Positions 8,488 through 22,529 of a stretch of DNA of 49,024 bases are shown piece by piece (within the stretch, counting starts at the first letter, position 1; each line of letters begins with the position of its first letter). A model generated the notes under the pieces. The model was given only the letters and a program-made list of their open reading frames with translations. It was not told the origin of the DNA and searched no databases. The position numbers and the translations under genes were made by a program. The DNA comes from an uncultured Thermodesulfobacteriota bacterium (GTDB lineage: Bacteria; Desulfobacterota; WTBG01). Location: NCBI GenBank assembly GCA_964459295.1, contig CAYWLT010000001.1:1-49024 (forward strand). The letters are read 5' to 3'.

Positions 8488-8740
8488 AGTCATTACCTCC
8501 TTGTAAGTGTGTTAGTGGTGGACGTCCATGTCCTTGGTGGTACTGTCGATGAAGCCATTTTTCGCAGAACGCTCTAGCCCGGCGCCAATAGTAGTTATTA
8601 TGCAACCGGGGCGGCTTCTGCCAGGTTTCGCTTCAAAACCTCTTCGTTCATCCCTCCTTTCATATCATCATTGTTGCTGCCCACAACCCTTCTATGTTGA
8701 CCACCTGCATTGTTCGTAGACCGCTTGAGTTGCTGTATGA

Positions 8741-8769
8741 TATCGGTACCGGGCCGACAAACCTTTAAT
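8741..8769 (-). promoter_or_regulatory. Sigma28 (FliA) promoter for the flagellin gene
   Basis: The minus strand reads TAAAGGTT-N12-ACCGATAT. Consensus is TAAAGTTT-N11-GCCGATAA; the B. subtilis sigmaD form is TAAA-N15-GCCGATAT. This implies a ~245-nt leader. Confidence 0.6.
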
Positions 8770-8875: not shown

Positions 8876-8902
8876 TAAAGTTATTTTTTATCCGGCCGAA
8901 CC
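8876..8902 (+). promoter_or_regulatory. Candidate sigma28 promoter for the glycosylation island
   Basis: The plus strand reads TAAAGTTA-N11-GCCGAACC (TAAA-N15-GCCGA). It is divergent from the flagellin promoter and ~35 nt before the ATG at 8936. Confidence 0.45.
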
Positions 8903-8935
8903 AACCATTAAGTGAATGGACAGTTGGAAGCAACG

Positions 8936-9631
8936 ATGAAAAACAATGGGTTAAAATTCTTCAAGCATTCGCCCCTTTTCAACCGGCTGCTCATCCTCAG
9001 CGCACTTGAGAGGACTCCCCGGAGCAGCCAGAGCAGCCTGGCGAAGGAGGCCGGTTTAACTTCATCCATGGTAAACAATTACATCCGCGAACTTTCACAT
9101 GAACGGTTGATCCTGATTCAGGGAAATACCAATAGGACGATCAGTTATAATCTTACCGGTAAGGGTTTACAGGAAAAGATGTCTTTGCTTGTCGCCTATA
9201 TATTAGAAACTACCGGCCTCTACCAGACAGCCAAGTGGGAATTTACTCAAAGACTTAAGAAAATCTATGAAGAAGGAATTCGCCGTGTCGTTCTCTTCGG
9301 TGCCGGCGCAACCGCGGAGCTTCTCTACAATGCCCGAAAATCCCTCGATCTTAAAATCGTCGGGGTAGTTGATAACGATCCTAAAAAACAAGGTACGCTT
9401 TTCGGCAATCTGATCATACAGGGACCCGAATATATTGAGCGGGTTAATCCGGATGGAGTAATCATCGCCTCAATCGGAAGACAAGATGAAATCTACGCCC
9501 AGATACGCCATCTTGCGAAAAAAGGGATTTCCGTACGTACCATAAGCGCTTCATGCCATGACAGTCAGAAAAAGCAAGAGAGCAGGCCTGCACCACGGAT
9601 GTCCAGAGGTTGCATAAGGAGGCAGGCATAA
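8936..9631 (+). CDS. Winged-helix (MarR-like) regulator fused to a Rossmann-like NAD/CoA-binding domain
   Basis: N-terminus SQSSLAKEAGLTSSMVNNYIRELSHERLI is HTH-like. C-terminus RRVVLFGAGATAELLYNARKSLDLKIVGVVDNDPKKQG resembles the N-terminal domain of NeuD/PglB-type proteins, but without the LbH part. Confidence 0.55.
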   Translation: MKNNGLKFFKHSPLFNRLLILSALERTPRSSQSSLAKEAGLTSSMVNNYIRELSHERLILIQGNTNRTISYNLTGKGLQEKMSLLVAYILETTGLYQTAKWEFTQRLKKIYEEGIRRVVLFGAGATAELLYNARKSLDLKIVGVVDNDPKKQGTLFGNLIIQGPEYIERVNPDGVIIASIGRQDEIYAQIRHLAKKGISVRTISASCHDSQKKQESRPAPRMSRGCIRRQA

Positions 9632-9662
9632 GGCTGGTAATGACCCACCTTCGGATAACCGC

Positions 9663-10385
9663 ATGAACCGATCCACGATAGGAGATCAGAAGATACTCGC
9701 AGTCATACCGGCCCGGGGCGGATCCAAAGGGATTCCCCGGAAGAATATACAGATGCTTCTGGGCAGGCCTTTAATCGCCTACTCCATTATTGCCGCACTC
9801 CGGTCGCAAACCGTACAGCAAACAGTTGTTTCAACCGACGATGAGGTTATTGCGCGCATCGCGCGGCACTTTGGAGCGGAAGTTCCCTTTCTACGACCTC
9901 CCTGCCTGTCAACCGATACCGCCTCCACCACATCTGTTTTGCGGCACGCGGTACGGTTCCTGTCGGACAAAAAAGAAAAGCCGGATGATATTATCGTGTG
10001 TCTGCAGCCGACCAGTCCGCTGCGCTCAGCCAATGACATCGATCAGGCGGTGCTTTTATGTTTGCAGGCGGGGGCGGATTCCGTGGTTTCACTCTGTCCG
10101 GCGGAACATCACCCCTACTGGATGAAAAAAGTGATGGGGGACAGGGTGTATCCGCTGATGGAGGTGGATGATGAACAATATCCCCGAAGACAAGACCTGC
10201 CTCCGGCATATCAATTAAACGGGGCTATTTATGTCACCCGAAGAAAAATCCTCCTCGAGGAAGAGCGACTGCTGGGAGAGAACACCCTGGCTTACATCAT
10301 GCCCCGGGAGCGATCTATCGATATTGATACCCCCTTTGATTTAAAGCTGGCGGAACTGATCATGAAGGGAGAGGTCACCCCATGA
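9663..10385 (+). CDS. neuA: Acylneuraminate (nonulosonate) cytidylyltransferase, NeuA/LegF type
   Basis: ILAVIPARGGSKGIPRKNIQMLLGRPLIAYSI is the CMP-NeuAc synthetase family signature. The stop overlaps the next start (ATGA). Confidence 0.9.
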   Translation: MNRSTIGDQKILAVIPARGGSKGIPRKNIQMLLGRPLIAYSIIAALRSQTVQQTVVSTDDEVIARIARHFGAEVPFLRPPCLSTDTASTTSVLRHAVRFLSDKKEKPDDIIVCLQPTSPLRSANDIDQAVLLCLQAGADSVVSLCPAEHHPYWMKKVMGDRVYPLMEVDDEQYPRRQDLPPAYQLNGAIYVTRRKILLEEERLLGENTLAYIMPRERSIDIDTPFDLKLAELIMKGEVTP

Positions 10386-11422
10386 CCGCGATAAAAATCG
10401 GCCGCAGGAGAATCGGTGAAAATCACCCTGCTTTCATTATTGCCGAAGCGGGTGTCAATCACAATGGTGACACGAGTCTGGCCAGAAAGCTGGTGGATGA
10501 CGCGGTTGCGGCAGGGGTTGATGCGGTTAAGTTCCAGACCTTTGTCACGGAGGAGATAGTCACCCGTACGGCACAGAAGGCGGACTACCAGAAGAAAAAC
10601 ACGGGGAGCTCAGGTGAATCGCAGTTTGAAATGCTGAAAAAACTGGAGTTATCGTTCGGCGCGTTCCGGGAGTTGAAGCGATATTGCGCGTTCCGGGGGA
10701 TTTTGTTTCTTTCCACCCCCTTTGATCGCCGGAGCGCCGATTTTTTAGATGATTTGAAAATCTCCGCCTTCAAGATCGCTTCCGGGGAGTTAACCAACCG
10801 GTCCCTCCTCCGCCATGTCGCTCTAAAGCGAAAACCGATCATTCTGTCTACCGGTATGTCCACCCTGAAAGAAGTGGAAAATGCGGTTACGATACTGGGC
10901 GGGACGCAAAACCGGCAAATAATTCTTCTCCACTGCACCTCCGAGTATCCGGCGAGGGCGGAAAGTATTAATTTGAGGGGCATGCGCACCCTGCAGGATC
11001 GGTTCGGCGTTCCGGTAGGCCTCTCAGATCATTCCCGGGGAATAGAAATCGCGCTTGCCGCCGTTGCCCTGGGGGCGTGCGTAATCGAAAAGCACTTTAC
11101 CCTGGACAAGAAGTTGCCCGGCCCCGATCACCGCGCCTCCCTGGAGCCTCAAGAATTAAAGGCATTGGTGCGGGGCATCCGAAATATCGAAAAAGCGATG
11201 GGAAACGGGACAAAGGCTCCATCCGGAACCGAAAGGAAAATCAGCCGCATTGTGAGAAAGAGCATCGTTGCCGCGGTGGATATAAAGCAGGGAACGCCGT
11301 TCCGTGAAGACAACCTCACCACCAAAAGGCCGGGGCATGGTATCAGCCCCATGCGATGGAACGAGGTGATCGGCAAAACGGCGATGAGAGATTTTAAGGC
11401 GGATGAGCTGATAATAATTTGA
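10382..11422 (+). CDS. neuB: Nonulosonic acid synthase, NeuB/LegI type
   Basis: IGENHPAFIIAEAGVNHNGD...DAVKFQTF...HCTSEYPA...LSDHS, plus a C-terminal SAF/antifreeze-like domain. Confidence 0.9.
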   Translation: MTAIKIGRRRIGENHPAFIIAEAGVNHNGDTSLARKLVDDAVAAGVDAVKFQTFVTEEIVTRTAQKADYQKKNTGSSGESQFEMLKKLELSFGAFRELKRYCAFRGILFLSTPFDRRSADFLDDLKISAFKIASGELTNRSLLRHVALKRKPIILSTGMSTLKEVENAVTILGGTQNRQIILLHCTSEYPARAESINLRGMRTLQDRFGVPVGLSDHSRGIEIALAAVALGACVIEKHFTLDKKLPGPDHRASLEPQELKALVRGIRNIEKAMGNGTKAPSGTERKISRIVRKSIVAAVDIKQGTPFREDNLTTKRPGHGISPMRWNEVIGKTAMRDFKADELIII

Positions 11423-12603
11423 GAGTCGCCATGAAACGGAAAATTTGCATTGTGACCGGCAGCCGCGCCGAATACGGATTGATGCACTGCCTAATGCAGG
11501 AAATTAGAGAAGACCCCGATCTGGCATTACAGCTAATCGTTACCGGCATGCACCTTTCGCCGGAGTTTGGTTTAACCTACAAGGCGATTGAAGAAGACGG
11601 CTTTGTGATCAACGAAAAAGTGGAGATGCTGATGTCAGGGGACACCCCGAGCGCCATTGCCAAATCCATGGGGCTCGGCGTTATCGGCTTTGCCGATGCC
11701 CTGGCGCGGCTCGGACCTGATATCATGGTTGTGCTGGGTGACCGGTATGAAATCTTCGCCGCCTGCGCCGCCGCCCTGCCTGCCCGTATCCCGATTGCCC
11801 ACCTGCACGGCGGAGAAACTACCCAGGGGGTTATTGATGAAGCAATCCGCCACGCAATAACCAAGATGGCGCACCTTCATTTCACCGCCACGGAAACATA
11901 CAAAAAAAGGGTCATTCAAATGGGAGAGCACCCGACGCGGGTTTTCTGTTTCGGCGCGCCCGGCCTTGATGCCATCGGGCGGCTCAGGCTGCGTGAACGC
12001 AGGGCGTTTGAAAAATCAATTGGATTTGAACTGGGCGCGAAAAACATCCTGATTACCTTTCATCCGGTCACCCTGGAGGCAAAGGTATCCGGTCTGCATT
12101 TCGGAGAACTGTTAAAAGCTCTGAAAAGGCTTAATGACACAAAGCTCATTTTTACCAAACCCAACGCGGACACCGATGGCCGGATTATCATCACAATGAT
12201 CAATGATTTTGTGAAGGAAAACGGCGACAGGGCCATTGGGGTTGACTCCCTGGGCCGGCTTAATTACTTGAGCGCCCTCAAACATGTAGACATGCTGGTG
12301 GGCAATTCTTCCAGCGGCCTGACCGAAGCACCGTCTTTTAAAATACCCACGGTTGATATCGGAGACCGGCAGAAGGGCCGCGTCCGGGCCCAAACGGTTA
12401 TTCATTGCGAAGCCAAGAGAAAAGATATTCTGGCTGCCATCAACCGGGGGTTCTCAACAAAATTTCGCGATTCCATCAAGGACGCGGTGAACCCCTACGG
12501 CGGAGGAGGGGCGTCGCGCCGCATAAAAAACAAGCTAAAAAATATTGGCCTTGGAAAGAATCTGCTTCAGAAGGAATTCCAGGATATCGGCTGCACGCCA
12601 TGA
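11419..12603 (+). CDS. neuC: UDP/GDP-N-acetylglucosamine 2-epimerase (hydrolysing), NeuC/LegG type
   Basis: KICIVTGSRAEYGLMHCLMQEI...VLGDRYE...AHLHGGE...HPVT. Overlaps the neuB stop. Confidence 0.9.
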   Translation: MRVAMKRKICIVTGSRAEYGLMHCLMQEIREDPDLALQLIVTGMHLSPEFGLTYKAIEEDGFVINEKVEMLMSGDTPSAIAKSMGLGVIGFADALARLGPDIMVVLGDRYEIFAACAAALPARIPIAHLHGGETTQGVIDEAIRHAITKMAHLHFTATETYKKRVIQMGEHPTRVFCFGAPGLDAIGRLRLRERRAFEKSIGFELGAKNILITFHPVTLEAKVSGLHFGELLKALKRLNDTKLIFTKPNADTDGRIIITMINDFVKENGDRAIGVDSLGRLNYLSALKHVDMLVGNSSSGLTEAPSFKIPTVDIGDRQKGRVRAQTVIHCEAKRKDILAAINRGFSTKFRDSIKDAVNPYGGGGASRRIKNKLKNIGLGKNLLQKEFQDIGCTP

Positions 12604-12636
12604 AGGTTCGCCAATCATAGCCGGGGCAATAGCAGC

Positions 12637-13746
12637 ATGAGTATTATATCTGAGGTTAAAGATGTGATAGTGGATCAGCACACTTCTTTCGGGGAAACGC
12701 TTCGGCGGATGGACCGGCATCAGAGAAGTATCACGCTGATAGTGGATGAGCATAACCGGCTGTCCGGCATTTTAACCGATGGCGACATTCGCAAGGCCAT
12801 TCTCAGCGGCATAACACCGGAGGAGAGCGTGCAAAAGGCGATGAACCGCAATTATTTCTGTTTAAAGTCCGGGTATGCGGACGGAGAAATGATCAGAATT
12901 ATGAAGGAAAACGGCATCTACCATCTTCCCATCGTGGATGAGCACCGGCGGCTCATCGGCGTCGTTTTCCAACAAACCTTTATCCAGCAAAAGATCCTGC
13001 TCAGTCCCATCGTTATTATGGCGGGTGGATTGGGCAGCCGCCTCTTCCCTTTAACCCGGGATACACCTAAGCCTCTCCTGGAGGTTTCGGGAAAGCCGAT
13101 GATTATCCATATACTGGAAAAGTTTCGCGATGAGGGGGCAAGGGATTTTTTCATTTGCGTCAATTATAAAAGCACCATGATTGAGGAACACCTGGGAGAT
13201 GGAAGCGCCTACCGCATTAACATAAATTATATCAAGGAAACCGAAAAGCTCGGCACGGCAGGCGCGCTCTCGCTCCTGCCGGAAATGTCCGCCCCCTTTT
13301 TTGTGGCCAACGCGGACGTCATGACTTCCATTAACTTGAGAGCGATGTATCAGTTTCACATCGATAACGAGGCGGCGCTCACCATGGCGATTAAAAAAAA
13401 CCAAAAGAATGTTCCCTTTGGAACGGTTACCCTGGAACACAACCGAATCGTTGACCTGAGTGAAAAGCCTTCAATCGTGTACTATCTCAACGCGGGTATC
13501 TACATTATCGATCATCACTGTCTCAAGGAGATCCCGACAAACCGCCTATACCATATGACCGATTTTGTCACCCACCTGCTCTCCCGCAATGAGAAGATAA
13601 CCGGGTATCTGATTAACGGCCCGTGGACCGATATAGGACAATTCAAGGATTATCTTGAATGCAACTGGGAAAGAGCGTCCAGCGGACACTCCGCCGAAAG
13701 CATCGGAAATCTCTACCGGGATGCGGTCCGGATCCCCCATCCGTAA
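12637..13746 (+). CDS. CBS-pair + sugar-phosphate nucleotidyltransferase (PtmE-like architecture)
   Basis: N-terminal CBS text LIVDEHNRLSGILTDGDIRK...HLPIVDEHRRLIGVV, then IVIMAGGLGSRLFPLTRDTPKPLL (G-x-G-t-R-l nucleotidyltransferase motif). Confidence 0.8.
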   Translation: MSIISEVKDVIVDQHTSFGETLRRMDRHQRSITLIVDEHNRLSGILTDGDIRKAILSGITPEESVQKAMNRNYFCLKSGYADGEMIRIMKENGIYHLPIVDEHRRLIGVVFQQTFIQQKILLSPIVIMAGGLGSRLFPLTRDTPKPLLEVSGKPMIIHILEKFRDEGARDFFICVNYKSTMIEEHLGDGSAYRININYIKETEKLGTAGALSLLPEMSAPFFVANADVMTSINLRAMYQFHIDNEAALTMAIKKNQKNVPFGTVTLEHNRIVDLSEKPSIVYYLNAGIYIIDHHCLKEIPTNRLYHMTDFVTHLLSRNEKITGYLINGPWTDIGQFKDYLECNWERASSGHSAESIGNLYRDAVRIPHP

Positions 13747-13772
13747 ATTGTTACAGTGCAGCCTAAGGAAAG

Positions 13773-14770
13773 ATGATCTCTATGGACTGGAAAAATAAAA
13801 CCATACTGGTGACCGGGGCGGAAGGATTTATCGGAAGCCATTTAACCGAAAGCCTGGTTGCCCGGGGAGCCCGGGTCAAGGCGCTGGCCATGTACAATGC
13901 CTTTAACAAGTGGGGTGGATCGACCGCTTTAAGCGTAATGATATGAATGGCCTCAGCGTTCTCTGCGGCGACATTCGGGAAGCTGATTTCTTGAAAGTTG
14001 CGCTCAAAGGGGTTGATATGGTTTTTCATCTGGCCGCGCTTATTTCCATTCCCTACTCGTATGTATCACCCTCTTCCTACATCAAGACCAATATCGAAGG
14101 GACACTCGCTCTTTTACAGGCATCGCAGGAGTGTGAGGTTGAAAAAATCATTCATACCTCATCCAGCGAGGTGTATGGAACCGCCCGGTATGTTCCCATC
14201 GACGAGCAGCATCCCCTCCAGGGCCAGTCTCCCTATGCGGCGAGCAAAATCGGCGCGGATATGATTGTGGAAAGTTTTTATCGTTCTTTTAATCTGCCGG
14301 TGATCACGGTTCGTCCCTTTAATACCTACGGCCCCCGGCAGTCTGCCAGGGCTATCATCCCCACCCTGATTGTTCAGATGCTCACCCGGAATACAATTAA
14401 GCTCGGGTCCCTGCACCCGGTAAGGGATTTCACCTACGTTTCGGATACAGTGCAGGGTTTTATCGCTGCGGCGGAGGCCGAGGGGATATACGGGGAAGTA
14501 ATCAACCTCGGCACCACCCGCGGCATATCAATCGGCGACCTGGCCGACAAACTGATGAAGATGATGGGAAAGACAGTGGAAATCGAATGTGAGCAGGAGA
14601 GGACCAGGCCGGCACGCAGCGAGGTCAACCGGCTTATCTGTGACAATCAAAAGGCGGGCGGGTTAATTGGCTGGCGCCCGGCGGTGCATCTGGACGAAGG
14701 TTTGGAGAAAACCATAAACTGGTTTAAGGAAAATCTGGAAGAATACAAGGGTGATGCATACGCCATTTGA
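13773..14770 (+). pseudogene. NAD-dependent sugar 4,6-dehydratase/epimerase (LegB-like SDR) with the reading frame broken at ~13911-13916
   Basis: The frame from the ATG at 13773 gives MISMDWKNKTILVTGAEGFIGSHL...YNAFNKWGG.. and stops at 13944-13946. A second frame (ORF track 13910-14770) continues GWIDRF...HLAAL...SPYAASK... So the Rossmann GxxGxxG and the catalytic YxxxK are in different frames. One extra G in TGGGGTGG would restore N-K-W-G-W-I-D. Confidence 0.75.
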
Positions 14771-14795
14771 TAATGCATAAGGACGGGGAGAGCGT

Positions 14796-17489
14796 ATGAG
14801 CTATTTTGAACAAAACCTGAAAGCCCTGGAGAAATGGCACCCCGAGATAGCCCGGCTGATGCGACGGGAGATAGATACGCGCCATATCGAGGTGTGTGTC
14901 TCAAAGGCCGGCATTGCCACCGCCAGGGTTACAACCCCCATCGGGGAGAGGGTCATGGTACATGATGAATTTGATCCGGCGGCAAAGGCTGAAGGGCACG
15001 TAAAAAAGCTTGATCTGTCCGGCACCAGCGGTTCGGTTCTTCTCGGCTTCGGGCTTGGGTATCTGGCTCGGGAAATAGTGAAAGCCATGGAAACCGGACA
15101 CCTGCTCATTATCTGTGAAGCCGATCCCGCACTGTTCAGGGTGGCCTTAGAACACTGTGATCTGGCACGGGTGTTTGAAACATCGAGCGTAAAACTGTTG
15201 CTGGGAAAAGACATTGATATAGCGCCGCACATTTTTAGTCTCACGATGAAATATCTCACCGCCAAAATATCGGTGATTAGCTTTCATCCATCCCTGGTTA
15301 TCGATCCCGAGGTATACCAGAACCTGTATCAAAAGGCGCAGGAAGCGGCCCTGCTGATTAAGGTAAAAGCCAATACCGTCCTCTACGGAGGCAGGGAAAT
15401 GGCGGGGAATATACTCGCCAATACCATGGAAATCATTCGATCCGCCGGCATTAGAAGATTGTTTAATAAGTTCAGGGGTATTCCCGCAATCATCGTAGGA
15501 GCCGGTCCTTCGCTGGAGAAAAATGTGGCGTTTTTAAAAGAGGTTAAGGAAAAAGCGATACTGATCGCGGCAGACCGAACCTTGGGACTGCTCTTACCTT
15601 TAGGCATAACCCCCCACCTGGTGCCGTCGATCGATTACAGCAAAGTCAACTATGACGAAAAATATGCATCGCTTCACATGAGCGATAAACTTTACATGGT
15701 CTTTTCTCAAACCCTTCATCACAATATTACCAGGAAGTTTTGGGGAGAAAAGTTTGTCCTGGGTACCCAGGATACCCTGGGCACTATGCTCAGTTATTAT
15801 TGGGGTGACAAGGGATATGTCCCCACCGGGCTGCACGTGGGTCATTTAGCATTTTGTTTGGCCGGCGCCATGGGCTGCAATCCCATTATACTCACCGGTA
15901 TGGACCTGGCCTTTTCCGGAGACAAGGTCCATGCCGGGGATATTGAAACGAAGGAGCACTATGTAGCGTCTGACCGGTTTGCCAGTGAAGGCATCTTCGG
16001 AGAGCGATTAAAATCGGATGCGCCTTTCAGAAGTTTTGTCTTTGATTTAAACAGGGCTATACGCGAGTCAAACGCACTGTGCATCGATGCCAGCGAGGGG
16101 GGGGCAAAAAAAGAGGGCGCCAGGATAATGCGTTTAAGAGATGCGGTTAGCGAATACTGCAAAGTCGACCATCCGGAAATAAGAAGTATTCTTGAAGAGG
16201 AGAGCCAAAAATTTGATGATTCGCTATATGATGAGTTGCAAAAAGATTTAATCTTTGTTGAAAAAGAGTCCAAAAGCATGAAACGGGCTTCCCGGGCAAT
16301 ACTAAGAATTATTGGAAAATTCCGGGCAATGAAGGCGGCGGGCAGGCAAACAAGCTCGGAATATATCAAGCTCACCAGGAAAGCCGAGATGTTGACCCGC
16401 CAGGCCGAGGGAAGAGGGCGGATCTGGAATATGTTGATGAATTACAACTTTGCCAATGTGCTTTTTATGGGAAGGGAGGAGATAAAAAAAATAGATTTAA
16501 TCGATGATCCGTATGAAAAACTGGAGGGCCAGTTGGATCGGGCGGCAACCTACTACAAAAACTTTCTCGATGCCCTTACCCCCTTCATTGACGACATTCA
16601 AAAACTCACAAAGAGACTTGCGCGGGAATGCACGGCAAAAGCTACTTTCGAAAAATCAGCGAAAACCTGGAGAGACTATCTCAGCTACGGCACGGATCTC
16701 TTTAAAGCGGAAATATACCGTGAGGCTGAAGCCGCCTTCAAGCAGGCCATCGAGTTAAATCCCGACCATAGTGAGGCCTGCTACTATTTAGGCAGGATTT
16801 ATCACGAACAGAATAGATTTAAGGCCGCCGCCTCCATATTAGAAAAGGCCATCGCGCTTGGAAGTGATGTAACCGATGCGAAAGATCTTCTCGATGCCTG
16901 TAACGAGAGGAACCGGCAATGGGATTCCCGCTGCCGGAAATTAAGGGAAAAATTCTACCGCCAGGCATTGCAAGGGCGTTATGAAAAGGCGGCTATTTTG
17001 GAAGGAGGGAATTTCTATTTTCGGGTTAAGGACTACGAACGGGCGAAGCAGGAGTATTTGTCGGTGATTGACCGCCATCCCGCACTGCCTGAGGCGCACT
17101 ACCACCTGGGACATACCTATTTTGCCATGCAAGATTTTGAAAAAGGCGTGGAGTCTTTGAGTAAAGCAATGGAGCTTGAACCGGACAACCCGGCGATATA
17201 TCGCGACCTGGGGCTGGTTTCAATCAAGCGGGGCCTGGTTGGGTCGGCTGAAAGATTTCTGCTGAAAGCGATCGAGCTGAAGCCGGACGACCTGGAACTG
17301 CATGAGATCCTGGGAAACCTCTACTTCAATAATGATCAGTATGAAAAGGCGGTTGAAATATACGAGCGGATTCTCGCAATCAAGCCGGATCACCACGAGT
17401 CGGCAAACAACCTGGGCAGGGCCTACCGTAAATTGATCGATGATAGCCTGCACGCGCCAGGCCGGACTCAAACCCAGTCACTACCGTAA
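14796..17489 (+). CDS. maf: Motility-associated factor (Maf, DUF115/MptE-like) flagellin glycosyltransferase with a C-terminal TPR array
   Basis: N-terminus FEQNLKALEKWHPEIARLM and core IPAIIVGAGPSLEKN...LIAADRTL...PSIDY are typical of Maf proteins. The last ~270 aa contain repeated TPR-like A..Y..AIEL.PD / Y.LG..Y units. Confidence 0.8.
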   Translation: MSYFEQNLKALEKWHPEIARLMRREIDTRHIEVCVSKAGIATARVTTPIGERVMVHDEFDPAAKAEGHVKKLDLSGTSGSVLLGFGLGYLAREIVKAMETGHLLIICEADPALFRVALEHCDLARVFETSSVKLLLGKDIDIAPHIFSLTMKYLTAKISVISFHPSLVIDPEVYQNLYQKAQEAALLIKVKANTVLYGGREMAGNILANTMEIIRSAGIRRLFNKFRGIPAIIVGAGPSLEKNVAFLKEVKEKAILIAADRTLGLLLPLGITPHLVPSIDYSKVNYDEKYASLHMSDKLYMVFSQTLHHNITRKFWGEKFVLGTQDTLGTMLSYYWGDKGYVPTGLHVGHLAFCLAGAMGCNPIILTGMDLAFSGDKVHAGDIETKEHYVASDRFASEGIFGERLKSDAPFRSFVFDLNRAIRESNALCIDASEGGAKKEGARIMRLRDAVSEYCKVDHPEIRSILEEESQKFDDSLYDELQKDLIFVEKESKSMKRASRAILRIIGKFRAMKAAGRQTSSEYIKLTRKAEMLTRQAEGRGRIWNMLMNYNFANVLFMGREEIKKIDLIDDPYEKLEGQLDRAATYYKNFLDALTPFIDDIQKLTKRLARECTAKATFEKSAKTWRDYLSYGTDLFKAEIYREAEAAFKQAIELNPDHSEACYYLGRIYHEQNRFKAAASILEKAIALGSDVTDAKDLLDACNERNRQWDSRCRKLREKFYRQALQGRYEKAAILEGGNFYFRVKDYERAKQEYLSVIDRHPALPEAHYHLGHTYFAMQDFEKGVESLSKAMELEPDNPAIYRDLGLVSIKRGLVGSAERFLLKAIELKPDDLELHEILGNLYFNNDQYEKAVEIYERILAIKPDHHESANNLGRAYRKLIDDSLHAPGRTQTQSLP
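16097..16104 (+). repeat. G8 homopolymer (followed by C then A7, 16106-16112) inside the maf coding sequence
   Basis: Read directly: gcgaGGGGGGGGcAAAAAAAgag, encoding E-G-G-A-K-K-E. Confidence 0.95.
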
Positions 17490-17536
17490 TAAATACCGCA
17501 ACCGAAACAGCCGGTTATTCTCAGGGGGTCTCGCAC

Positions 17537-18958
17537 ATGACATTAAAAGGAAGGGTGCTATTTATTATTCATGATTTATATCAGGAAGACAATCACTTGC
17601 CGCTCGGTCCGGCCTATCTGGGCGCGGTTTTAAAAAAACAGGGTGTAACGGTTGAAGCGTATTGCCAGGACCTTTTTCACCACAGCAATCAGGCGCTGGC
17701 CGCCCATTTAGCCAGGAACACCTACGATCTCATCGGCGTAGGATTTCTAGCGGCCCGCTTTACCGAGACCGTCATCGACCTCTGCGCGACCATTAAGCGG
17801 CATAACCGCGGCTGGTTAATCCTGGGCGGACACGGCCCCACTCCTATCCCGGAATACATGCTGAAAAAAACCGGCGCCGATGTGGTGATAATGGGGGAAG
17901 CCGAAGAAACCATTATAGACCTATTACGATGCAGAATTGATGGAGGAGACCTTTCGGCGATAAAGGGAATCGCGTTCCGGAACGGTGCGGAAATCACGAT
18001 TAATGAAAGGCGACCGCCGATTAAGAGTTTGGATTCCATTCCCTTTCCGGAGTGGTCTTTATTCCCCATGGAAAAGTACACTAACTGCTTGAGTCTCTTC
18101 AGACAAGAGAAAGGAGACAGAGCCGTGGGTATACTGACCAGCCGGGGCTGCGTAAACCGGTGTGCGTTCTGCTACCGGATGGAAAATGGCATTCGGTTCA
18201 GGTCGGTTGAAAATGTGGTTGAAGAAATGAAGGTTCTGAACAAAACCTACGGGGTTAACTACTTCCACCCCCAGGATGAACTTTTTATTGCCAGTAAAAA
18301 GAGGGCTTTTGAGCTGCATCGTCAGTTAAAGAAAAACAAGCTTACCATAAAATTCGCGTGTAATGCGCGGGTCGATATCTTTGACCAAGAGCTGGCATCC
18401 TGTTTAAAAGAATGCGGATGCCAGTTTCTCAATTTCGGCATGGAGTCTTCCGACCAAAACGTGCTGAACCTGATGAACAAAGGAACCTCCGTAGCCCAGA
18501 ATATAAAAGCGGCGGAAATAACAAGAAAGGCGGGAATCGGGCTTGGTTTAAATTTCATCTGGGGCAATATCGGCGATACGGAAGAATCGCTTAAAAATAA
18601 CGTAAGGCTGATTAAAGAATATACCACCTATGATCAGCTCAGAACCATTCGGCCGGTTACCCCCTATCCCGGATGCGACTTGTATTATGAGGCAATCCGC
18701 CGGGGGCTTTTAGCCGGACCTGAGGACTTCTTCAATAAATTTAAAAACTCTGATCTTCGGTTGGTTAATTTTACCGAGATACCGGAAGGAGAGTTCTACC
18801 AGCTGCTCTTTGAAGCCAATAAAGAACTCATCCGAGACCACTACTGGCACACCACTCGGAACATGGACCAGGCGCAAGCGCTGATTAATGACTTTAAGGG
18901 TCTATATTTTGGGAATAAAATTAAATTTAGAGGGGCCCGACACTACCAGGCCGCCTGA
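17537..18958 (+). CDS. B12-binding-domain radical SAM enzyme
   Basis: N-terminal cobalamin-binding-like Rossmann text (YDLIGVGFLAARF...VIMGEAEE), then the radical SAM cluster motif SRGCVNRCAFCY. Confidence 0.85.
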   Translation: MTLKGRVLFIIHDLYQEDNHLPLGPAYLGAVLKKQGVTVEAYCQDLFHHSNQALAAHLARNTYDLIGVGFLAARFTETVIDLCATIKRHNRGWLILGGHGPTPIPEYMLKKTGADVVIMGEAEETIIDLLRCRIDGGDLSAIKGIAFRNGAEITINERRPPIKSLDSIPFPEWSLFPMEKYTNCLSLFRQEKGDRAVGILTSRGCVNRCAFCYRMENGIRFRSVENVVEEMKVLNKTYGVNYFHPQDELFIASKKRAFELHRQLKKNKLTIKFACNARVDIFDQELASCLKECGCQFLNFGMESSDQNVLNLMNKGTSVAQNIKAAEITRKAGIGLGLNFIWGNIGDTEESLKNNVRLIKEYTTYDQLRTIRPVTPYPGCDLYYEAIRRGLLAGPEDFFNKFKNSDLRLVNFTEIPEGEFYQLLFEANKELIRDHYWHTTRNMDQAQALINDFKGLYFGNKIKFRGARHYQAA

Positions 18959-18966
18959 CCCGGCTT

Positions 18967-19014
18967 CCGGCGGGCGGTTGAAAAAGCGCCGGTCTGCGGT
19001 TTAAGCCATAGGGC
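18967..19014 (+). repeat. Dispersed intergenic repeat, copy 1 (diverged)
   Basis: CCGGCGGGCGGTTGAAAAAGCGCCGGTCTGCGGTTTAAGCCATAGGGC. It shares GCGGTTGAAAAA, TCTG and a GGG tail with the family consensus. Confidence 0.6.
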
Positions 19015-19061
19015 ACCGGGTCGTTCCGTAAGCTGCCAAATACATTGTTGTGGCTACAAAG

Positions 19062-19114
19062 CCCCCCCCCTTGAGCCACGAATCAGATGGGTTTTTTTCA
19101 ACCGCCGGCTCCGC
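19062..19114 (-). repeat. Dispersed intergenic repeat, copy 2 (includes a C9 tract at 19062-19070)
   Basis: The plus strand reads CCCCCCCCCTTGAGCCACGAATCAGATGGGTTTTTTTCAACCGCCGGCTCCGCC. It is nearly identical to the copy at 33964-34010. Confidence 0.85.
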
Positions 19115-19120
19115 CACGGA

Positions 19121-20122
19121 ATGAATATGCTGATTGAGTACGAAAAGGCATTAGCGGTATTTAATCGGTTTCAAGAAAACCAGAAAATCCCGTATCTTCA
19201 TCCGTACTATGTGGCGGCTGATGCCCAACGCGATGGAGGATTGACCCCGGGATTTTTTGTATACGAGGAAGAAAAGTCGGTTTTTTATCACCCCTTTCAT
19301 ATTGCGCCGGTAGCGGGAACTGGGTTCTTCGACATACAATCCGCCTACGGTTACGGAGGCCCCCTGGCAAACAGTAAGGAGGCGGGATTTCTGACCAGAG
19401 CATGGTCTGCCCACTGTGCCTGGTGTAAGCAACAAAATGTTCTGGCGGAATTTATTCGTTTTCATCCTCTGCTCCACAACTGGTGTTATTATCACGGCGA
19501 GGTGGTGGAGGAGCGCGAGACCGTGTGGGTAAATCTTTGCACCAACCATGTGTCGTCCGCCTATCGGGAGCTCGCCAGAAGAGGTGTGAGAAAAGCAAAA
19601 AAGAACGGGTTGACCGTTGAGTGGTGGAGCGGTGATCAGTTTATCAAGATATTTCCCCTTTTGTACGATATCTTCATGACCGAATTGAACGCGGATACTT
19701 TTTATCATTTTAGCAATGAATATTTTGCAGGAATCCTATCATGGGAAAAGGCACTTTGTGCAGTATGTAAACGGGGAGATGAGGTGGTGTCCGCGGGAGT
19801 CTTTTTGGCGGATGCCGACGCCATGGAATATCATCTCTCAGCTTCAAGTCCCGCCGCAAGAGAGCTCGGTTCAGTCTATTTGCTGATGGATGAAGCCGCC
19901 CGGCGCGGCCAGCAGCTTGCCTGCCGGACTTTACATCTGGGGGGCGGTACTGATAACCGTTCCGATAACCCACTGCTTTTCTTCAAATCAAGATTTTCCG
20001 ATTTGCGCGCCTCCTTCCGGATCGGGAAAAAGATCTATTTTTCAGAGGACTACGATCAAATGAAACGCAGATGGCAGGAAAAACAAGGTGTTGCCGCACA
20101 TCGGGTGCTCTTTTATCGATAA
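19121..20122 (+). CDS. FemAB-like / GNAT-fold acyl(aminoacyl)transferase candidate
   Basis: 333-aa ORF. FDIQSAYGYGGPL...AEFIRFHPLL...MEYHLSAS resembles the Acetyltransf_6/FemAB-type proteins seen in polysaccharide loci. Assigned by motif recollection only. Confidence 0.55.
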   Translation: MNMLIEYEKALAVFNRFQENQKIPYLHPYYVAADAQRDGGLTPGFFVYEEEKSVFYHPFHIAPVAGTGFFDIQSAYGYGGPLANSKEAGFLTRAWSAHCAWCKQQNVLAEFIRFHPLLHNWCYYHGEVVEERETVWVNLCTNHVSSAYRELARRGVRKAKKNGLTVEWWSGDQFIKIFPLLYDIFMTELNADTFYHFSNEYFAGILSWEKALCAVCKRGDEVVSAGVFLADADAMEYHLSASSPAARELGSVYLLMDEAARRGQQLACRTLHLGGGTDNRSDNPLLFFKSRFSDLRASFRIGKKIYFSEDYDQMKRRWQEKQGVAAHRVLFYR

Positions 20123-20139
20123 GCTGGAGGAGGCAGGGA

Positions 20140-20817
20140 ATGACTTGGGATCCGGTATGGGAAGAAGTTTTTAAAACACAGGCCTGGGGCAAATACCCGA
20201 CGGTTGATCTTATCCGTTTTGTCGCACGCAATTTTTACCGGTCAAAAGATCGTCAAGGCATAAAATTACTGGAAGTCGGCTGCGGGCCGGGCGCAAATTT
20301 ATGGTATATGGCGCGTGAAGGATTTACTGTCTACGGGATGGATGCCTCTAAAACGGCGATTGCCCGGGCGGAGGAACGTCTGCACCGGGAGTGTCCCGGA
20401 TGGTGTGGCAAACTTAGCACCGGAGATATAAGTGTTCTCCCTTTTCATGACGAATTCTTTGACGCGGTTATCGATATTGAGGCGATTTCCTGCAATTCCT
20501 ATGATAACGCAAAAACTATTTACGGTGAACTGGCGCGGGTGGCGAAGAAAGGCGGTAAATTGTTTTCCCAGACATTTGCAACCGGCTGCTGGGGTGACCG
20601 CACCGGTAGAAAAGTCGGTCACCGGGCGTGGATCGTATCGGAAGGTCCCCTGCTGGATAAGGGGTATGTGCGTTTTACCGACCGGAGCGAACTGGAAGAC
20701 CTCACCGGTGGATTTACACTTCATGAAGCGGAGCTTCTGACCCGAACCATGAACGGCATGCGCCATGAAATAAAGGAATGGATTATCATTGGTGAAAAAA
20801 AGCCGGAGCCCGCATGA
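20140..20817 (+). CDS. Class I SAM-dependent methyltransferase
   Basis: LLEVGCGPGANLWYMAREGFTVYGMDAS is motif I (E/DxGxGxG). GGAGGAGG RBS before the ATG at 20140. The ORF-track start at 20071 overlaps the previous gene. Confidence 0.85.
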   Translation: MTWDPVWEEVFKTQAWGKYPTVDLIRFVARNFYRSKDRQGIKLLEVGCGPGANLWYMAREGFTVYGMDASKTAIARAEERLHRECPGWCGKLSTGDISVLPFHDEFFDAVIDIEAISCNSYDNAKTIYGELARVAKKGGKLFSQTFATGCWGDRTGRKVGHRAWIVSEGPLLDKGYVRFTDRSELEDLTGGFTLHEAELLTRTMNGMRHEIKEWIIIGEKKPEPA

Positions 20818-21959
20818 TACCCCTGAGCGCACCCTCCCTCAAAGGAAATGAATGGAAGTATGTAAAAGAATGCCTTGACACCGAGTGGGTTTCATCTGTC
20901 GGGAAATACGTCGATGCCTTCGAAAAAAACATGGCCGACTACCTTGGTGCAAAATATGCGGTAGCATGCATGAACGGCACCTCAGCTCTACATGTGTCAT
21001 TGCTCCTCGCAGAGGTAAAACCTTCGGAAGAGGTCATTGTCCCTACGGTAAGCTTTATCGCGCCGGTTAACGCAGTAAAATATGTAGGTGCTGAACCGCT
21101 TTTTATGGATTGCGATGGATATTGCAATATAGACGTGAACAAAACCAAAGAATTTATCAAGACCGGCTGTCACGTGATTAACGGCAATTTAATTAATAAT
21201 ACCACGGGAAAAAGAATAGCGGCTATAATCCCGGTGCATATCTTTGGAACCCCGGTGGACATGGACCCTTTAAGGGAATTGGCGGATAGCTATAAGATAA
21301 AAATTATTGAAGATGCAACCGAATCACTGGGAGCTGAGTATAAGGGAAAGAAAACCGGGACCCTGGGCCTGCTGGGTTGCTTAAGTTTTAACGGTAATAA
21401 GATTATTACCACCGGCGGGGGAGGAATGATCATTACCAATGATGAGCGCCTGGCAAAAAAGGCAAAATACTTGATTACCCAGGCAAAGGAAGAAGGAACG
21501 GAATATGTCCATGGAGAAATTGGTTTTAACTACCGGATGGTTAACGTGCTCGCCGCAATCGGCATGGGTCAGCTTGAAATGATAGACGATTATATGGCGA
21601 TAAAAAGAAAAAATTTCCTTCGCTACCGGGAACTGCTGTCTGACCAGCGCTACAGCTTGTTGGACGAACCGGTCTATGCTAAGTCGAACCGCTGGCTCTA
21701 CGCGGTCAGGTGCCACGATAAAAGAGAAAAAGAATTTTTACTCCGCTATCTCAATAGCGACGGTATCGAAGCCCGCCCGTTATGGCATCTGAACCACCTG
21801 CAAAAGCCCTACCTCAAGTGCCAGTCATATAAAATTGAGCAGGCGCCGAGAATGCATGACATCATAGCAAACATTCCCTCTTCCGTGAATTTGACAGAGA
21901 CCCAGATCAGAGAAGTGGTGCAAGCGATGAAAAAAGCCGGCACGGCCAGTGGGGTCTAA
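20814..21959 (+). CDS. DegT/DnrJ/EryC1/StrS-family PLP aminotransferase (LegC/PglE-like)
   Basis: IPLSAPSLKGNEWKYVKECLDTEWVSSVGKYVDAFE...MNGTSALH...SFNGNKIITTGGGGMI (PLP lysine context). Confidence 0.9.
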   Translation: MIPLSAPSLKGNEWKYVKECLDTEWVSSVGKYVDAFEKNMADYLGAKYAVACMNGTSALHVSLLLAEVKPSEEVIVPTVSFIAPVNAVKYVGAEPLFMDCDGYCNIDVNKTKEFIKTGCHVINGNLINNTTGKRIAAIIPVHIFGTPVDMDPLRELADSYKIKIIEDATESLGAEYKGKKTGTLGLLGCLSFNGNKIITTGGGGMIITNDERLAKKAKYLITQAKEEGTEYVHGEIGFNYRMVNVLAAIGMGQLEMIDDYMAIKRKNFLRYRELLSDQRYSLLDEPVYAKSNRWLYAVRCHDKREKEFLLRYLNSDGIEARPLWHLNHLQKPYLKCQSYKIEQAPRMHDIIANIPSSVNLTETQIREVVQAMKKAGTASGV

Positions 21960-22034: not shown

Positions 22035-22529
22035 CTAAAGGGGATGGGTTGCTGCCTCTCGCTTAACCTTGGAAGGTCCGCCGGCAGGCACTGCATCTCG
22101 CGTATCTGAAAAGATAATATGGCGCACGGAATACACGCTTTCCTTTATGACCGTCTGCTTGGCTAATTTCTTCTCAGCATTGATTATAACCGGACCCTGC
22201 AAGTTAATGGTAATTTCACTGTGGTCGCGTTTGATGTTGACAATGACCACGATCAGGCCTCTGCCTGCATCCGTGAGTCCGATCGACCTTACCTCTTCTT
22301 CGGTTATTTTTATTGTGTAATCGGGGACAAACAGAAGAGGATCGGTTATGACAAAGGCGAGCGAGGGATCTTCCGTGGATTGTAGCCACTTAAAGGGGGT
22401 TTCCCTGTCAAAGTGGTCCAAAATAATATACCGTTTCAGGCTTTCAAACCCTAAAATTCCCTCAGGCAAGGTGAGAATAAGGTCTTCATCAATTTTTATC
22501 CGGCCAAAACGGGTTGTTTCTATCTCCAC
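22035..22529 (-). CDS. fliW: Flagellar assembly factor FliW (CsrA antagonist)
   Basis: RFGRIKIDEDLILTLPEGILGFESLKRYIIL...PFKWLQSTEDPSLAFVITDP is the FliW signature. Confidence 0.9.
   Translation of the reverse strand: MEIETTRFGRIKIDEDLILTLPEGILGFESLKRYIILDHFDRETPFKWLQSTEDPSLAFVITDPLLFVPDYTIKITEEEVRSIGLTDAGRGLIVVIVNIKRDHSEITINLQGPVIINAEKKLAKQTVIKESVYSVRHIIFSDTRDAVPAGGPSKVKREAATHPL

Follow-up and report, generated by a model that had tools for sequence, protein, structure and literature searches.

A legionaminic-type sugar operon beside the flagellin gene of an uncultured Thermodesulfobacteriota bacterium, with a FemX-like candidate in the place of LegH

Which sugar would an uncultured Thermodesulfobacteriota bacterium attach to its flagellin, and how would that sugar be acylated when the operon beside the flagellin gene lacks the usual acetyltransferase? 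The question is raised by a stretch of 49,024 nucleotides (the window; positions 1 to 49,024 of contig CAYWLT010000001.1, assembly GCA_964459295.1), in which eleven same-direction genes occupy positions 8912-21959 of the + strand. They are bordered on one side by the divergent gene for a 585-aa flagellin (6736..8493, − strand; NCBIfam flagellin models, best 343 bits), the presumed acceptor, with 24% Ser+Thr in its central domain, and on the other by the convergent gene for FliW (22035..22529, − strand; NCBIfam NF009793, 135.9 against a cut-off of 130), which ends 76 nt past the last island gene. This arrangement, described in an earlier note on the same DNA, is borne out by the open reading frame listing, and every gene was confirmed by Pfam and NCBIfam in the content and order given there. 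The note began the island at 8876, but that position belongs to a putative sigma-28-like promoter motif facing the island (8876..8902, + strand; TAAAGTT, 12 nt, GCCGAAC; read from the sequence), while the first gene begins at 8912; a sigma-70 scan gave nothing of note at 8876..8902. The eleven genes are one genuine operon, for which the putative motif makes late flagellar regulation probable.

The intergenic gaps measure, in gene order, 31, -4, 8, 33, 26, 25, 47, 162, 17 and -4 nt. The tight packing noted earlier therefore includes two real overlaps of 4 nt; a further overlap, between the Fem-like and methyltransferase genes, is only apparent, since the latter starts at 20140 in near-identical sibling assemblies. 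The operon's only long gap (18959..19120) holds a dispersed repeat as two copies in inverted orientation, with arms at 18970-18985 and 19094-19109 that are 94% complementary, and a run of nine C at 19062-19070 that is invariant across the sibling assemblies.

One gene is broken in the present assembly. LegB, a LegB-type NAD-dependent 4,6-dehydratase (13773..14770, + strand; TIGR04180), is split at a G4 run (13913-13916) into two frames, 13773-13916 and 13916-14770, which places the NAD-binding N-terminus (GAEGFIGSH) and the catalytic part (YAASK) in different frames and could mean that the island is dead in its source organism. This is very improbable: in six assemblies obtained independently from other samples, with 99.85-99.97% identity across as much as 11 kb, the run is G5 and LegB is an intact protein of 329 aa. 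Only one more indel occurs in the set, seen once, in a different gene and in an assembly other than the present one, and all island genes besides LegB are undamaged. The split is specific to the present assembly. Intact sibling LegB scores 467.4 against TIGR04180 (cut-off 475), 300 bits over the next family, and 66 against PseB.

The remaining core genes identify the type of sugar. The NeuB/LegI-type nonulosonate synthase (10382..11422, + strand) passes TIGR03569 (485.7 against 399.65) and falls below the PseI model (312.2 against 340.25), and the LegC-family sugar 4-aminotransferase (20814..21959, + strand) passes TIGR04181 (473 against 420) and falls below PseC (230.1 against 423.5). The NeuC/LegG-type hydrolysing 2-epimerase (11431..12603, + strand) passes TIGR03568 (478.2 against 235.9) and falls below WecB (100.9 against 210); its start is given as ATG 11431 in the sibling gene calls and as TTG 11419 in the open reading frame list, and a sibling variant at 11421 abolishes the TTG start. 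The NeuA/LegF-type CMP-nonulosonate synthetase (9663..10385, + strand; CTP_transf_3, 93 bits) likewise stays below the PseF model (182.8 against 205.7). In a synthase tree that took in no characterised LegI or LegC sequence, the island synthase joins the synthases of LegB/LegC clusters in a clade with 96% SH-aLRT support, with a PseI and meningococcal NeuB outside; SpsE of B. subtilis, of a reported Leg pathway, forms a long branch outside that clade. An HMM search of the 94.6%-complete metagenome-assembled genome (MAG) found no PseB, PseG or PseI above cut-off, and no second nonulosonate cluster was found in the genome. Both HMM placement and phylogeny thus agree with the earlier proposal of a legionaminic-type sugar, neither pseudaminic nor plain sialic acid, and such an assignment is supported, with legionaminic acid and its 4- or 8-epimers indistinguishable from sequence.

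The entry enzyme fits the same picture. The PtmE-like sugar-1-phosphate nucleotidyltransferase with a CBS pair (12637..13746, + strand; CBS 58.7, NTP_transferase 146.6 bits) has mannose-1-phosphate guanylyltransferases as its closest solved structures and is probably a guanylyltransferase, and the closest solved structures to LegC are GDP-perosamine synthases, so that the GDP-linked Campylobacter route fits. The Pfam domains and the structural matches both uphold the earlier reading of this gene as a PtmE-like GDP-sugar entry enzyme.

Three further genes accompany the core. The first (8912..9631, + strand) encodes a MarR-like winged helix (HTH_24, 32 bits) followed by a small Rossmann domain that matches the Methyltransf_14 C-domain, CoA_binding and the NeuD N-domain. 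Its family (1070 representatives, about 205 aa) gives a profile matching the WbpM-type N-domain (3nkl), Rex and MarR proteins, with PglD_N present in 6 of 30 members, and the protein probably acts as a regulator that senses through a nucleotide-binding domain; alignment with homologs begins near residue 12, and the true start may therefore lie slightly downstream of 8912. The Maf-type flagellin nonulosonate transferase (14796..17489, + strand; 897 aa; MptE-like 135.8, Maf_flag10_N 29.8 bits; 59 bits to the PseD domain model) ends in a TPR array, hit by many TPR models over residues 610-880 or so. The cobalamin-binding radical SAM enzyme of class B type (17537..18958, + strand; B12-binding 46.1, Radical_SAM 65.5 bits) carries its CxxxCxxC motif as CVNRCAFC at residue 205 and is closest to the solved structures of AprD4, TsrM, OxsB and TokK. 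Homologs of 39-41% identity occur both in Leg clusters that have LegH and in those that have Fem, and this enzyme is, for that reason, independent of Fem.

In the canonical pathway, LegH acetylates the C4 amine with acetyl-CoA after LegC has acted. The enzyme set had been called incomplete, and this holds for the LegH step, with all other steps present. No left-handed beta-helix acetyltransferase was found in the island, where a NeuD HMM built in the present analysis matched nothing better than the Rossmann domain of the first gene's product, at 22.6 bits; in the MAG, none passed the TIGR03570 cut-off. The strongest candidate for a left-handed beta-helix enzyme is encoded on contig C150, in a WbpB/WbpE/WbpD-like cluster that includes an aminotransferase and an oxidoreductase of its own. 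The earlier observation that LegH/NeuD is lacking is thereby extended to the whole assembly.

The candidate for the vacant step is a FemX-like tandem-GNAT transferase (19121..20122, + strand), which matches Acetyltransf_6 with 27.7 bits and Pfam FemAB with 19.9, under the cut-off of 24. The best 24 matches of its AlphaFold model (pLDDT 90.9) in a Foldseek search of the PDB are all aminoacyl-tRNA-dependent transferases, among them FemX (TM 0.70-0.72), FemA, MprF and Sbb17/Sba18 bound to the amino sugar streptothrisamine. The family profile also matches FemX (E = 8e-9), and F288-K289 and Y237, invariant in the family, align with F304-K305 and Y254 of FemX. The next gene encodes a class I SAM methyltransferase (20140..20817, + strand; Methyltransf_11, 62 bits; start from sibling gene calls), homologs of which (39-65% identity) lie immediately downstream of Fem in about 30 loci.

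Comparison across genomes places the Fem gene in a recurrent cassette, defined as six or more members of an eight-gene core, namely LegB, LegC, NeuC, NeuB, Fem, MT (methyltransferase), PtmE and NeuA, at loci chosen via Fem. Such cassettes were found at 37 loci in Bacillota, Pseudomonadota, Acidobacteriota and others, mostly with the core genes in that order; they adjoin Maf and flagellin in Brevibacillus and Paenibacillus and stand in a capsule/O-antigen setting in Geomesophilobacter. A NeuD/LegH-type gene is absent from 36 of the 37, the remaining locus (L034) having both. Among 20 LegC loci of the same phylum, drawn from 401 genomes, a LegH-type gene adjoins LegC/NeuB in 11, all without Fem, and two have Fem without LegH. 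Twelve remoter Fem homologs (25-33% identity) have a DegT-type sugar aminotransferase within about 1.5 kb. This complementarity rests on few independent events, with only two supported contrasts on the synthase tree, a number at which a sign test is powerless. Fold, catalytic residues, conserved cassette and LegH-complementary distribution together support the suggestion, made in the earlier note, that the Fem-like protein takes LegH's place as the N-acylating enzyme; judging from the modelled fold, it is probably aminoacyl-tRNA dependent.

Other roles for the Fem-like enzyme have been considered. The product might be ordinary di-N-acetyl legionaminic acid, its 4-amine acetylated by an enzyme whose gene lies outside the island or has dropped out of the MAG, with the Fem-like protein, methyltransferase and radical SAM enzyme acting later or elsewhere. 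CMP-Leg and flagellin itself are examples of targets for these three. The MAG is in 391 contigs, and at its level of completeness an unlinked acetyltransferase may be missing; GlmU, too, is below its cut-off, so such absences do occur in this assembly. Moreover, a NeuD-type gene lies elsewhere in 9 of 20 other cassette genomes, and C150 supplies a WbpD-like acetyltransferase. This reading is nevertheless unlikely, given that the other 11 genomes have no NeuD-type gene above cut-off anywhere, that a local one is almost never found in the cassettes, while in this phylum the canonical Leg clusters have LegH adjoining LegC, and that the C150 enzyme belongs to a complete amino-sugar cluster of its own. 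Quite unlikely, too, is that the Fem-like enzyme replaces LegH but uses acyl-CoA (acetyl or another short acyl) rather than aminoacyl-tRNA. GNAT folds can use acyl-CoA, the GNAT model is the one above its Pfam cut-off, and tandem-GNAT acyl-CoA enzymes enter the fold list from rank 25; yet the 24 matches ahead of them all depend on aminoacyl-tRNA, the family is invariant at the positions of the Phe-Lys pair and Tyr254 of FemX, and the conserved methyltransferase partner suits a free-amine residue better than an acetyl group.

Acylation of the C2 amine of GDP-glucosamine, which becomes N5, with N7 acetylated or free, is a reading to which we give little credence. Wherever Fem is present the missing enzyme is LegH, the N4 acetyltransferase; the remote homologs pair with 4-aminotransferase-type DegT genes; and two cassettes (L038 and L049) carry a PIG-L de-N-acetylase and a formyltransferase, which suggests that N5 is initially acetylated. 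A free 2-amine does occur along the PtmE-type route, and the MAG holds no GlmU above cut-off: in Campylobacter, Schoenhofen and colleagues are said to have found that PtmE yields GDP-GlcN, which GlmU then acetylates. There is also a precedent in C. botulinum, whose legionaminic acid bears an amino acid on N5 (bioRxiv 10.1101/2020.06.03.131540), but its gene set differs: Table S3 of PMC13317340 lists a CarB-type gene along with an acyltransferase and an N-acetylglucosamine deacetylase.

That system, FGI-II of Clostridium botulinum F Langeland, is reported to place Leg5GluNMe7Ac on flagellin (Twine et al. 2008, as cited in PMC13317340 and bioRxiv 10.1101/2020.06.03.131540). As described there, it resembles the island in encoding LegB, LegC, LegG, LegI, LegF, a nucleotidyltransferase and a methyltransferase together, and in an N-methylated amino acid on flagellin Leg, which in the island is only predicted. 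The island has neither deacetylase nor CarB-type gene, and the FGI-II gene list has no Fem-like entry. CarB we take, by its family name, to be an ATP-grasp-type ligase, giving FGI-II a deacetylate-and-ligate route at N5. With the GDP-linked CMP-Leg pathway of Campylobacter jejuni/coli (PtmE, LegB, LegC, LegH, LegG, LegI, LegF), the island shares all families but one, along with the CBS-bearing GDP-type entry enzyme, the Maf transferase and adjacency to flagellin. Unlike Campylobacter, it lacks LegH and has the FemX-like enzyme, the methyltransferase, the B12-radical SAM enzyme, a long TPR tail on Maf and a wHTH-Rossmann regulator first in the operon.

Precedents for an amino acid on such a sugar come from other settings. 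As summarised in PMC7685785 (after Li et al. 2010), Lea1-Lea7 of the E. coli O161 O-antigen lead to CMP-Leg5Ac7Ala, and Lea3 is annotated 'alanyltransferase'; like the island, this set has a dedicated transferase in the LegH slot (a likeness drawn from annotation) and a PtmE-like sugar-phosphate nucleotidyltransferase, and its N7 amino acid is the position proposed here. It differs in serving an O-antigen rather than a flagellar glycan, the genes listed there include no methyltransferase or radical SAM, and its enzyme roles are given by annotation. V. vulnificus CMCP6 has Leg5Ac7AcAla (PMC7371886), and Orf11 of the BD-12 pathway uses Gly-tRNA to glycylate an amino sugar (PMC12945691). Orf11 and these alanine-bearing sugars, the O161 one as summarised, make amino-acylation by the Fem-like protein plausible. 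In architecture (structures 1ne9, 4ii9 and 9wqx) this protein is like Weissella viridescens FemX, Orf11 and Sbb17/Sba18, tandem GNATs of about 330 aa without the FemA coiled coil, and shares the conserved Phe-Lys and Tyr of FemX-type transferases; the substrate of FemX is soluble and linked to a nucleotide, and Orf11, Sbb17 and Sba18 act on an amino-sugar amine (PMC12945691). It differs from them in a nonulosonate operon setting and an identity of only 12-14%, and the function of its subfamily is assigned from sequence, fold and context.

The pathway that we favour, with fair confidence, would yield a CMP-activated 5,7-diamino nonulosonate of legionaminic type for flagellin by the GDP-linked route. 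The PtmE-like enzyme would form a GDP-hexosamine, LegB would dehydrate it across C4/C6 and LegC would aminate C4. The FemX-like enzyme would then move an amino acid from aminoacyl-tRNA to the C4 amine (later N7), and the neighbouring methyltransferase may methylate that residue, most simply at its free alpha-amine. NeuC/LegG would remove GDP and epimerise C2, NeuB/LegI would condense the product with PEP, NeuA/LegF would activate it with CMP, and the Maf-TPR protein would attach it to flagellin Ser/Thr. The B12-radical SAM enzyme may add a further change, most likely a C-methylation, on a Fem-independent part of the sugar. Since the acetyl-adding enzyme appears to have been swapped for a relative of cell-wall enzymes that use aminoacyl-tRNA, the sugar of this island probably carries a methylated amino acid in place of an acetyl group.

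The eleven genes of the island lie on the + strand from 8912 to 21959, with spacings of -4 to 47 nt and a sole exception of 162 nt ahead of the Fem-like gene. On the upstream side a 418-nt spacer separates the island from the divergent flagellin gene (6736-8493, -), and the downstream border is formed by the convergent genes for FliW, CsrA and FlgL. The gene content and order proposed in the earlier note, running from a winged-helix protein through NeuA, NeuB, NeuC, a PtmE-like nucleotidyltransferase, LegB, Maf, a B12-radical SAM enzyme, a Fem-like protein and a methyltransferase to LegC, are borne out item by item by both Pfam and NCBIfam. The window is the entire contig C1 of a 2.94 Mb metagenome-assembled genome (MAG) of 391 contigs and 94.6% completeness, and MAGs labelled Deltaproteobacteria have proteins that match its FlhA at 83% identity. 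Two putative sigma-28-like motifs, read from the sequence, stand back to back in the spacer, one toward flagellin at 8741-8769 (-) and one toward the island at 8876-8902 (+); should both function, flagellin and the sugar pathway would be turned on at the same time.

The first gene encodes a member of a family of proteins of about 205 amino acids with 1070 representatives, in which a MarR-like winged helix is joined to a small domain of Rossmann type that resembles the N-termini of PglD and WbpM as well as Rex. It can fairly be read as a regulator whose sensor domain binds a nucleotide. Further along, Maf, which carries a TPR array, matches the MptE-like model (135.8 bits, cut-off 34.6) and Maf_flag10_N (29.8, cut-off 23.5), and the flagellin gene lies 6.3 kb upstream of it. 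Encoded beside flagellin and nonulosonate genes, it is a predicted flagellin nonulosonate transferase. A G8-C-A7 tract inside maf (16097-16112) and a C9 tract before fem (19062-19070) do not vary in length among the sibling assemblies that span them, these being near-identical independent assemblies of other samples. Phase variation at the two tracts thus shows no sign at the level of contigs, which speaks weakly against it as contigs hide minority variants.

The sugar made by this pathway had been proposed to be of the legionaminic (Leg) type and not pseudaminic, and the family models agree. The 4-aminotransferase belongs to the LegC family (TIGR04181, 473 bits against a cut-off of 420) and fails the PseC model (230 against 423.5), while the synthase passes NeuB_NnaB (TIGR03569, 486 against 400) and fails PseI (312 against 340.25). 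The 2-epimerase is of the hydrolysing NeuC/LegG type rather than WecB (TIGR03568, 478 against 236), and the CMP-synthetase NeuA/LegF matches CTP_transf_3 (93 against 22.6); the models TIGR03568, TIGR03569 and CTP_transf_3 do not split Leg from Neu enzymes. The predicted NAD-dependent 4,6-dehydratase LegB, in its intact sibling form, reaches 467.4 bits over its full length with TIGR04180, whose cut-off is 475, standing 300 bits over the next model (167), with PseB at 66. As for the remaining pseudaminic equivalogs, the best PseB match is 51.9 against 407.75 and PseG has no match. The rest of the 94.6%-complete genome contains no PseB, PseG or PseI, and no further NeuB, NeuC, Maf or Fem gene.

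The placement of the synthase was also examined in a tree of 53 synthases, in which the window enzyme belongs to a clade supported at 96% SH-aLRT; the other members of this clade come from clusters with LegC, nearly all of them with LegB as well. A PseI (8h2c), meningococcal NeuB (1xuu) and B. subtilis SpsE (1vli) lie outside that clade on long branches. Because no characterised LegI is included, the tree excludes pseudaminic and capsule-sialic placements and stops short of proving a Leg placement. Of the placements that the earlier note would have taken as a refutation, the pseudaminic one is disfavoured by the HMM scores of synthase and aminotransferase, and both the pseudaminic and the capsule-sialic one by the tree of the synthase. 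Comparison of NeuB with solved structures by sequence was discarded as a classifier, with PseI, SpsE and NeuB scoring alike (210, 206 and 198 bits).

The entry into the pathway is represented by a PtmE-type protein that joins CBS domains (58.7 bits) to a sugar-1-phosphate nucleotidyltransferase (NTP_transferase, 146.6 bits). Since its closest solved structures are mannose-1-phosphate guanylyltransferases and those of LegC are GDP-perosamine synthases, the two proteins fit the GDP-linked route of Campylobacter. That Leg pathway plus Maf forms the backbone of the island, which differs from it in having no LegH. Taken as a whole, the gene content supports a legionaminic-type flagellin glycosylation operon predicted to be complete except for LegH.

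In the window, LegB is split at a run of four G (13913-13916), which leaves its NAD-binding N-terminus (GAEGFIGSH; 13773-13916) in a different frame from its catalytic part (YAASK; 13916-14770). In six independent assemblies of other samples, which match the island at 99.85-99.97% identity over as much as 11 kb, the run has five G and LegB is an intact protein of 329 amino acids. This site is the only indel of the window contig against its siblings across the island, and the ten sibling contigs contain one further indel, which lies in the Fem gene and occurs in a single other assembly. Because the independent assemblies carry G5 with an intact gene and the other indel is only a singleton, the split is, by this comparison, either an error in the assembly or a variant of low frequency and not a property of the lineage; the G4 itself looks like a consensus error of the MAG.

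The N-acetylation step of the canonical Leg pathway is the one for which the island offers no familiar enzyme. The earlier observation that it has no left-handed beta-helix N-acetyltransferase of the LegH/NeuD/PglD type holds for the island and extends to the 94.6%-complete genome, where none exceeds the TIGR03570 cut-off. The top beta-helix candidate of the genome, on contig C150, was rejected as the primary reading of a stand-in for LegH, because it is flanked by a DegT aminotransferase and a Gfo/Idh/MocA oxidoreductase and so belongs to a separate WbpB/E/D-like pathway. The reading of the first gene of the island as a LegH remnant was likewise rejected: of the LegH architecture its product has only the small Rossmann-like domain of the N-terminus, it lacks a beta-helix, and it belongs to the large wHTH-Rossmann family. 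Also in this MAG, no GlmU gene exceeds the model cut-off, and the best frame, of 477 amino acids, has the beta-helix half only (69 bits; C116:2796-3497, -); either GlmU is divergent or split here, or the assembly has a gap.

Within the island, the enzyme that most likely substitutes for LegH is a FemX-like protein (19121-20122, +). This protein of 333 amino acids has 1600 relatives in the protein collection, mostly of about 332 amino acids and unnamed or called "GNAT family". Its AlphaFold model, built on 17 relatives, has a pLDDT of 90.9 and adopts a tandem GNAT fold that matches FemX of Weissella with a TM-score of 0.70-0.72 (E = 1e-14). The best 24 PDB matches are all aminoacyl-tRNA-dependent transferases, among them FemX, FemA, Sbb17/Sba18 with the bound amino sugar streptothrisamine, and the aminoacyl-phosphatidylglycerol synthase domain of MprF, and tandem GNATs that use acyl-CoA rank after them. 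The window protein scores 19.9 with PF02388, for which the cut-off is 24, and many homologs have a precomputed match to this family; the profile of the Fem family in turn matches FemX (E = 8e-9). Residues F288-K289 and Y237, invariant in 17 family members, align with Phe304-Lys305 and Tyr254 of FemX, and the enzyme is probably tRNA-dependent.

Scanning genome contigs for Fem relatives with the single protein returned no match, while a profile scan of species-representative genomes identified 64 Fem loci. Homologs at least 35% identical almost always occur in the order LegB, LegC, NeuC, NeuB, Fem, methyltransferase, PtmE-like, NeuA, and at least six of these eight genes are present in 37 loci. 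The cassette stands beside Maf and flagellin in Brevibacillus, Paenibacillus, Metabacillus, Cohnella and Pseudoalteromonas, and beside Wzz/Wzx-type genes in Geomesophilobacter. A LegH-type gene is absent from 36 of the 37 cassettes, and 11 of 20 cassette genomes have none over the cut-off anywhere. For a comparison set independent of Fem, LegC-positive loci were collected among 401 genomes of the window's phylum, of which 26 exceeded the cut-off and 20 regions were examined. In eleven of these regions a LegH-type gene adjoins LegC or NeuB and Fem is absent, in two Fem is present without LegH, and seven have neither. Such a complementary distribution is what functional replacement predicts, though it reflects few independent events; with phylogenetic correction on the synthase tree, a test of the exclusion of Fem and LegH retains only two supported independent contrasts and has no power. 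Because more distant Fem homologs (25-33% identity) adjoin a DegT-type sugar aminotransferase in twelve loci, gene neighbourhood suggests that the acceptor is the amine of a sugar.

Some cassettes contain additional genes. A divergent DegT-fold protein of about 365 amino acids, absent from the window, is encoded between NeuC and NeuB in 12 of the 37 Fem cassettes (L021:7817-8926; also L016, L018, L022, L024-L027, L031, L039, L040 and L047). It matches PF01041 over its C-terminal part only, at 32 bits, and may be the "second aminotransferase" mentioned for Leg clusters of Vibrio/Aliivibrio. A formyltransferase is added in some cassettes (L009:6786-7709; L038:7341-8926; L049:13900-15377), accompanied in L038 and L049 by a PIG-L de-N-acetylase, a pairing that hints at exchange of the N5 acetyl group for formyl.

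The methyltransferase that follows Fem (20140-20817, +) is a generic class I enzyme for which no informative relative was found. It stands directly after Fem in about 30 loci, and because this position is fixed, gene order suggests that it methylates the group that Fem adds. The B12-radical SAM enzyme has the architecture of the cobalamin-dependent (class B) family, with an N-terminal B12-binding domain (46.1 bits, cut-off 32.1) and a radical SAM core (65.5, cut-off 29.5) carrying CVNRCAFC (CxxxCxxC) at residue 205. No NCBIfam equivalog was reached, the best being BchE at 127 against 481, and the solved relatives include the methylases TsrM and TokK and the aminoglycoside dehydratase AprD4. 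Its co-occurrence with Fem is confined to the closest relatives (85% and 76% identity). The canonical LegH-type clusters L150 and L158 also have homologs, at 39-41% identity, and these are closer to the window enzyme than are its eleven paralogs in its own genome. Because of these homologs in LegH-type clusters, the enzyme is taken to be a module independent of Fem that acts on a feature shared by the two types of pathway. Within the window's phylum, further nonulosonate clusters have B12-radical SAM genes, with L150, L158, L166, L167 and L164 as examples; in the last, from a genome of the window's class, the gene of a B12-radical SAM enzyme that itself has a TPR tail and the gene of a class I methyltransferase lie between NeuC and a second NeuB-like gene (15411-17698), with no Fem. 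In the window, the 162-nt gap between the radical SAM and Fem genes contains an inverted pair of a dispersed repeat, at 18970-18985 (GCGGGCGGTTGAAAAA) and 19094-19109 (TTTTTCAACCGCCGGC), which could form an internal stem-loop. Rfam reports no RNA family in the window and hence no cobalamin riboswitch ahead of the radical SAM gene.

Legionaminic acids bearing amino acids have been described in several bacteria. E. coli O161 produces Leg5Ac7Ala, with a cluster that lists Lea3 as an "alanyltransferase" (PMC7685785), V. vulnificus produces Leg5Ac7AcAla (PMC7371886), and the flagellin of C. botulinum carries Leg5GluNMe7Ac (bioRxiv 10.1101/2020.06.03.131540). The genes given for the C. botulinum island in Table S3 of PMC13317340 include those for an acyltransferase, a deacetylase and a PtmH-like methyltransferase as well as a CarB-type gene; we read this set as a different, ligase-based solution. 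Lea3 is compared here with the Fem family by its annotation: a "distant" blastn search of E. coli genomes with gammaproteobacterial cassette DNA gave no match, and the proteins found with the Pseudoalteromonas Fem homolog as query included none from E. coli or Vibrio. In the literature searched, no enzyme with demonstrated activity was found for the amino-acid step of legionaminic acids.

Against this background, we tentatively propose, as a real possibility held with somewhat more doubt than conviction, that the Fem-methyltransferase pair is a widespread alternative to LegH that brings aminoacyl-tRNA into nonulosonic acid biosynthesis, and that, together with the B12-radical SAM enzyme, it would here yield a flagellin legionaminic acid with an N-methylated, possibly C-methylated amino acid, a new sugar. 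The island and dozens of related cassettes offer a concrete candidate for the amino-acid step, a FemX-like enzyme with a conserved methyltransferase partner, and because culturable Brevibacillus, Paenibacillus and Geomesophilobacter carry the cassette, this candidate is directly testable. Cultured carriers include Brevibacillus reuszeri, B. porteri, B. fortis and Geomesophilobacter sediminis Red875. The nonulosonic acids of flagella and capsules shape motility as well as phage and immune recognition, and their diversity stems from their N-acyl groups. If the proposal is true, it would give charged tRNA a new role beyond translation and would allow surface-sugar structures to be better predicted from genomes.
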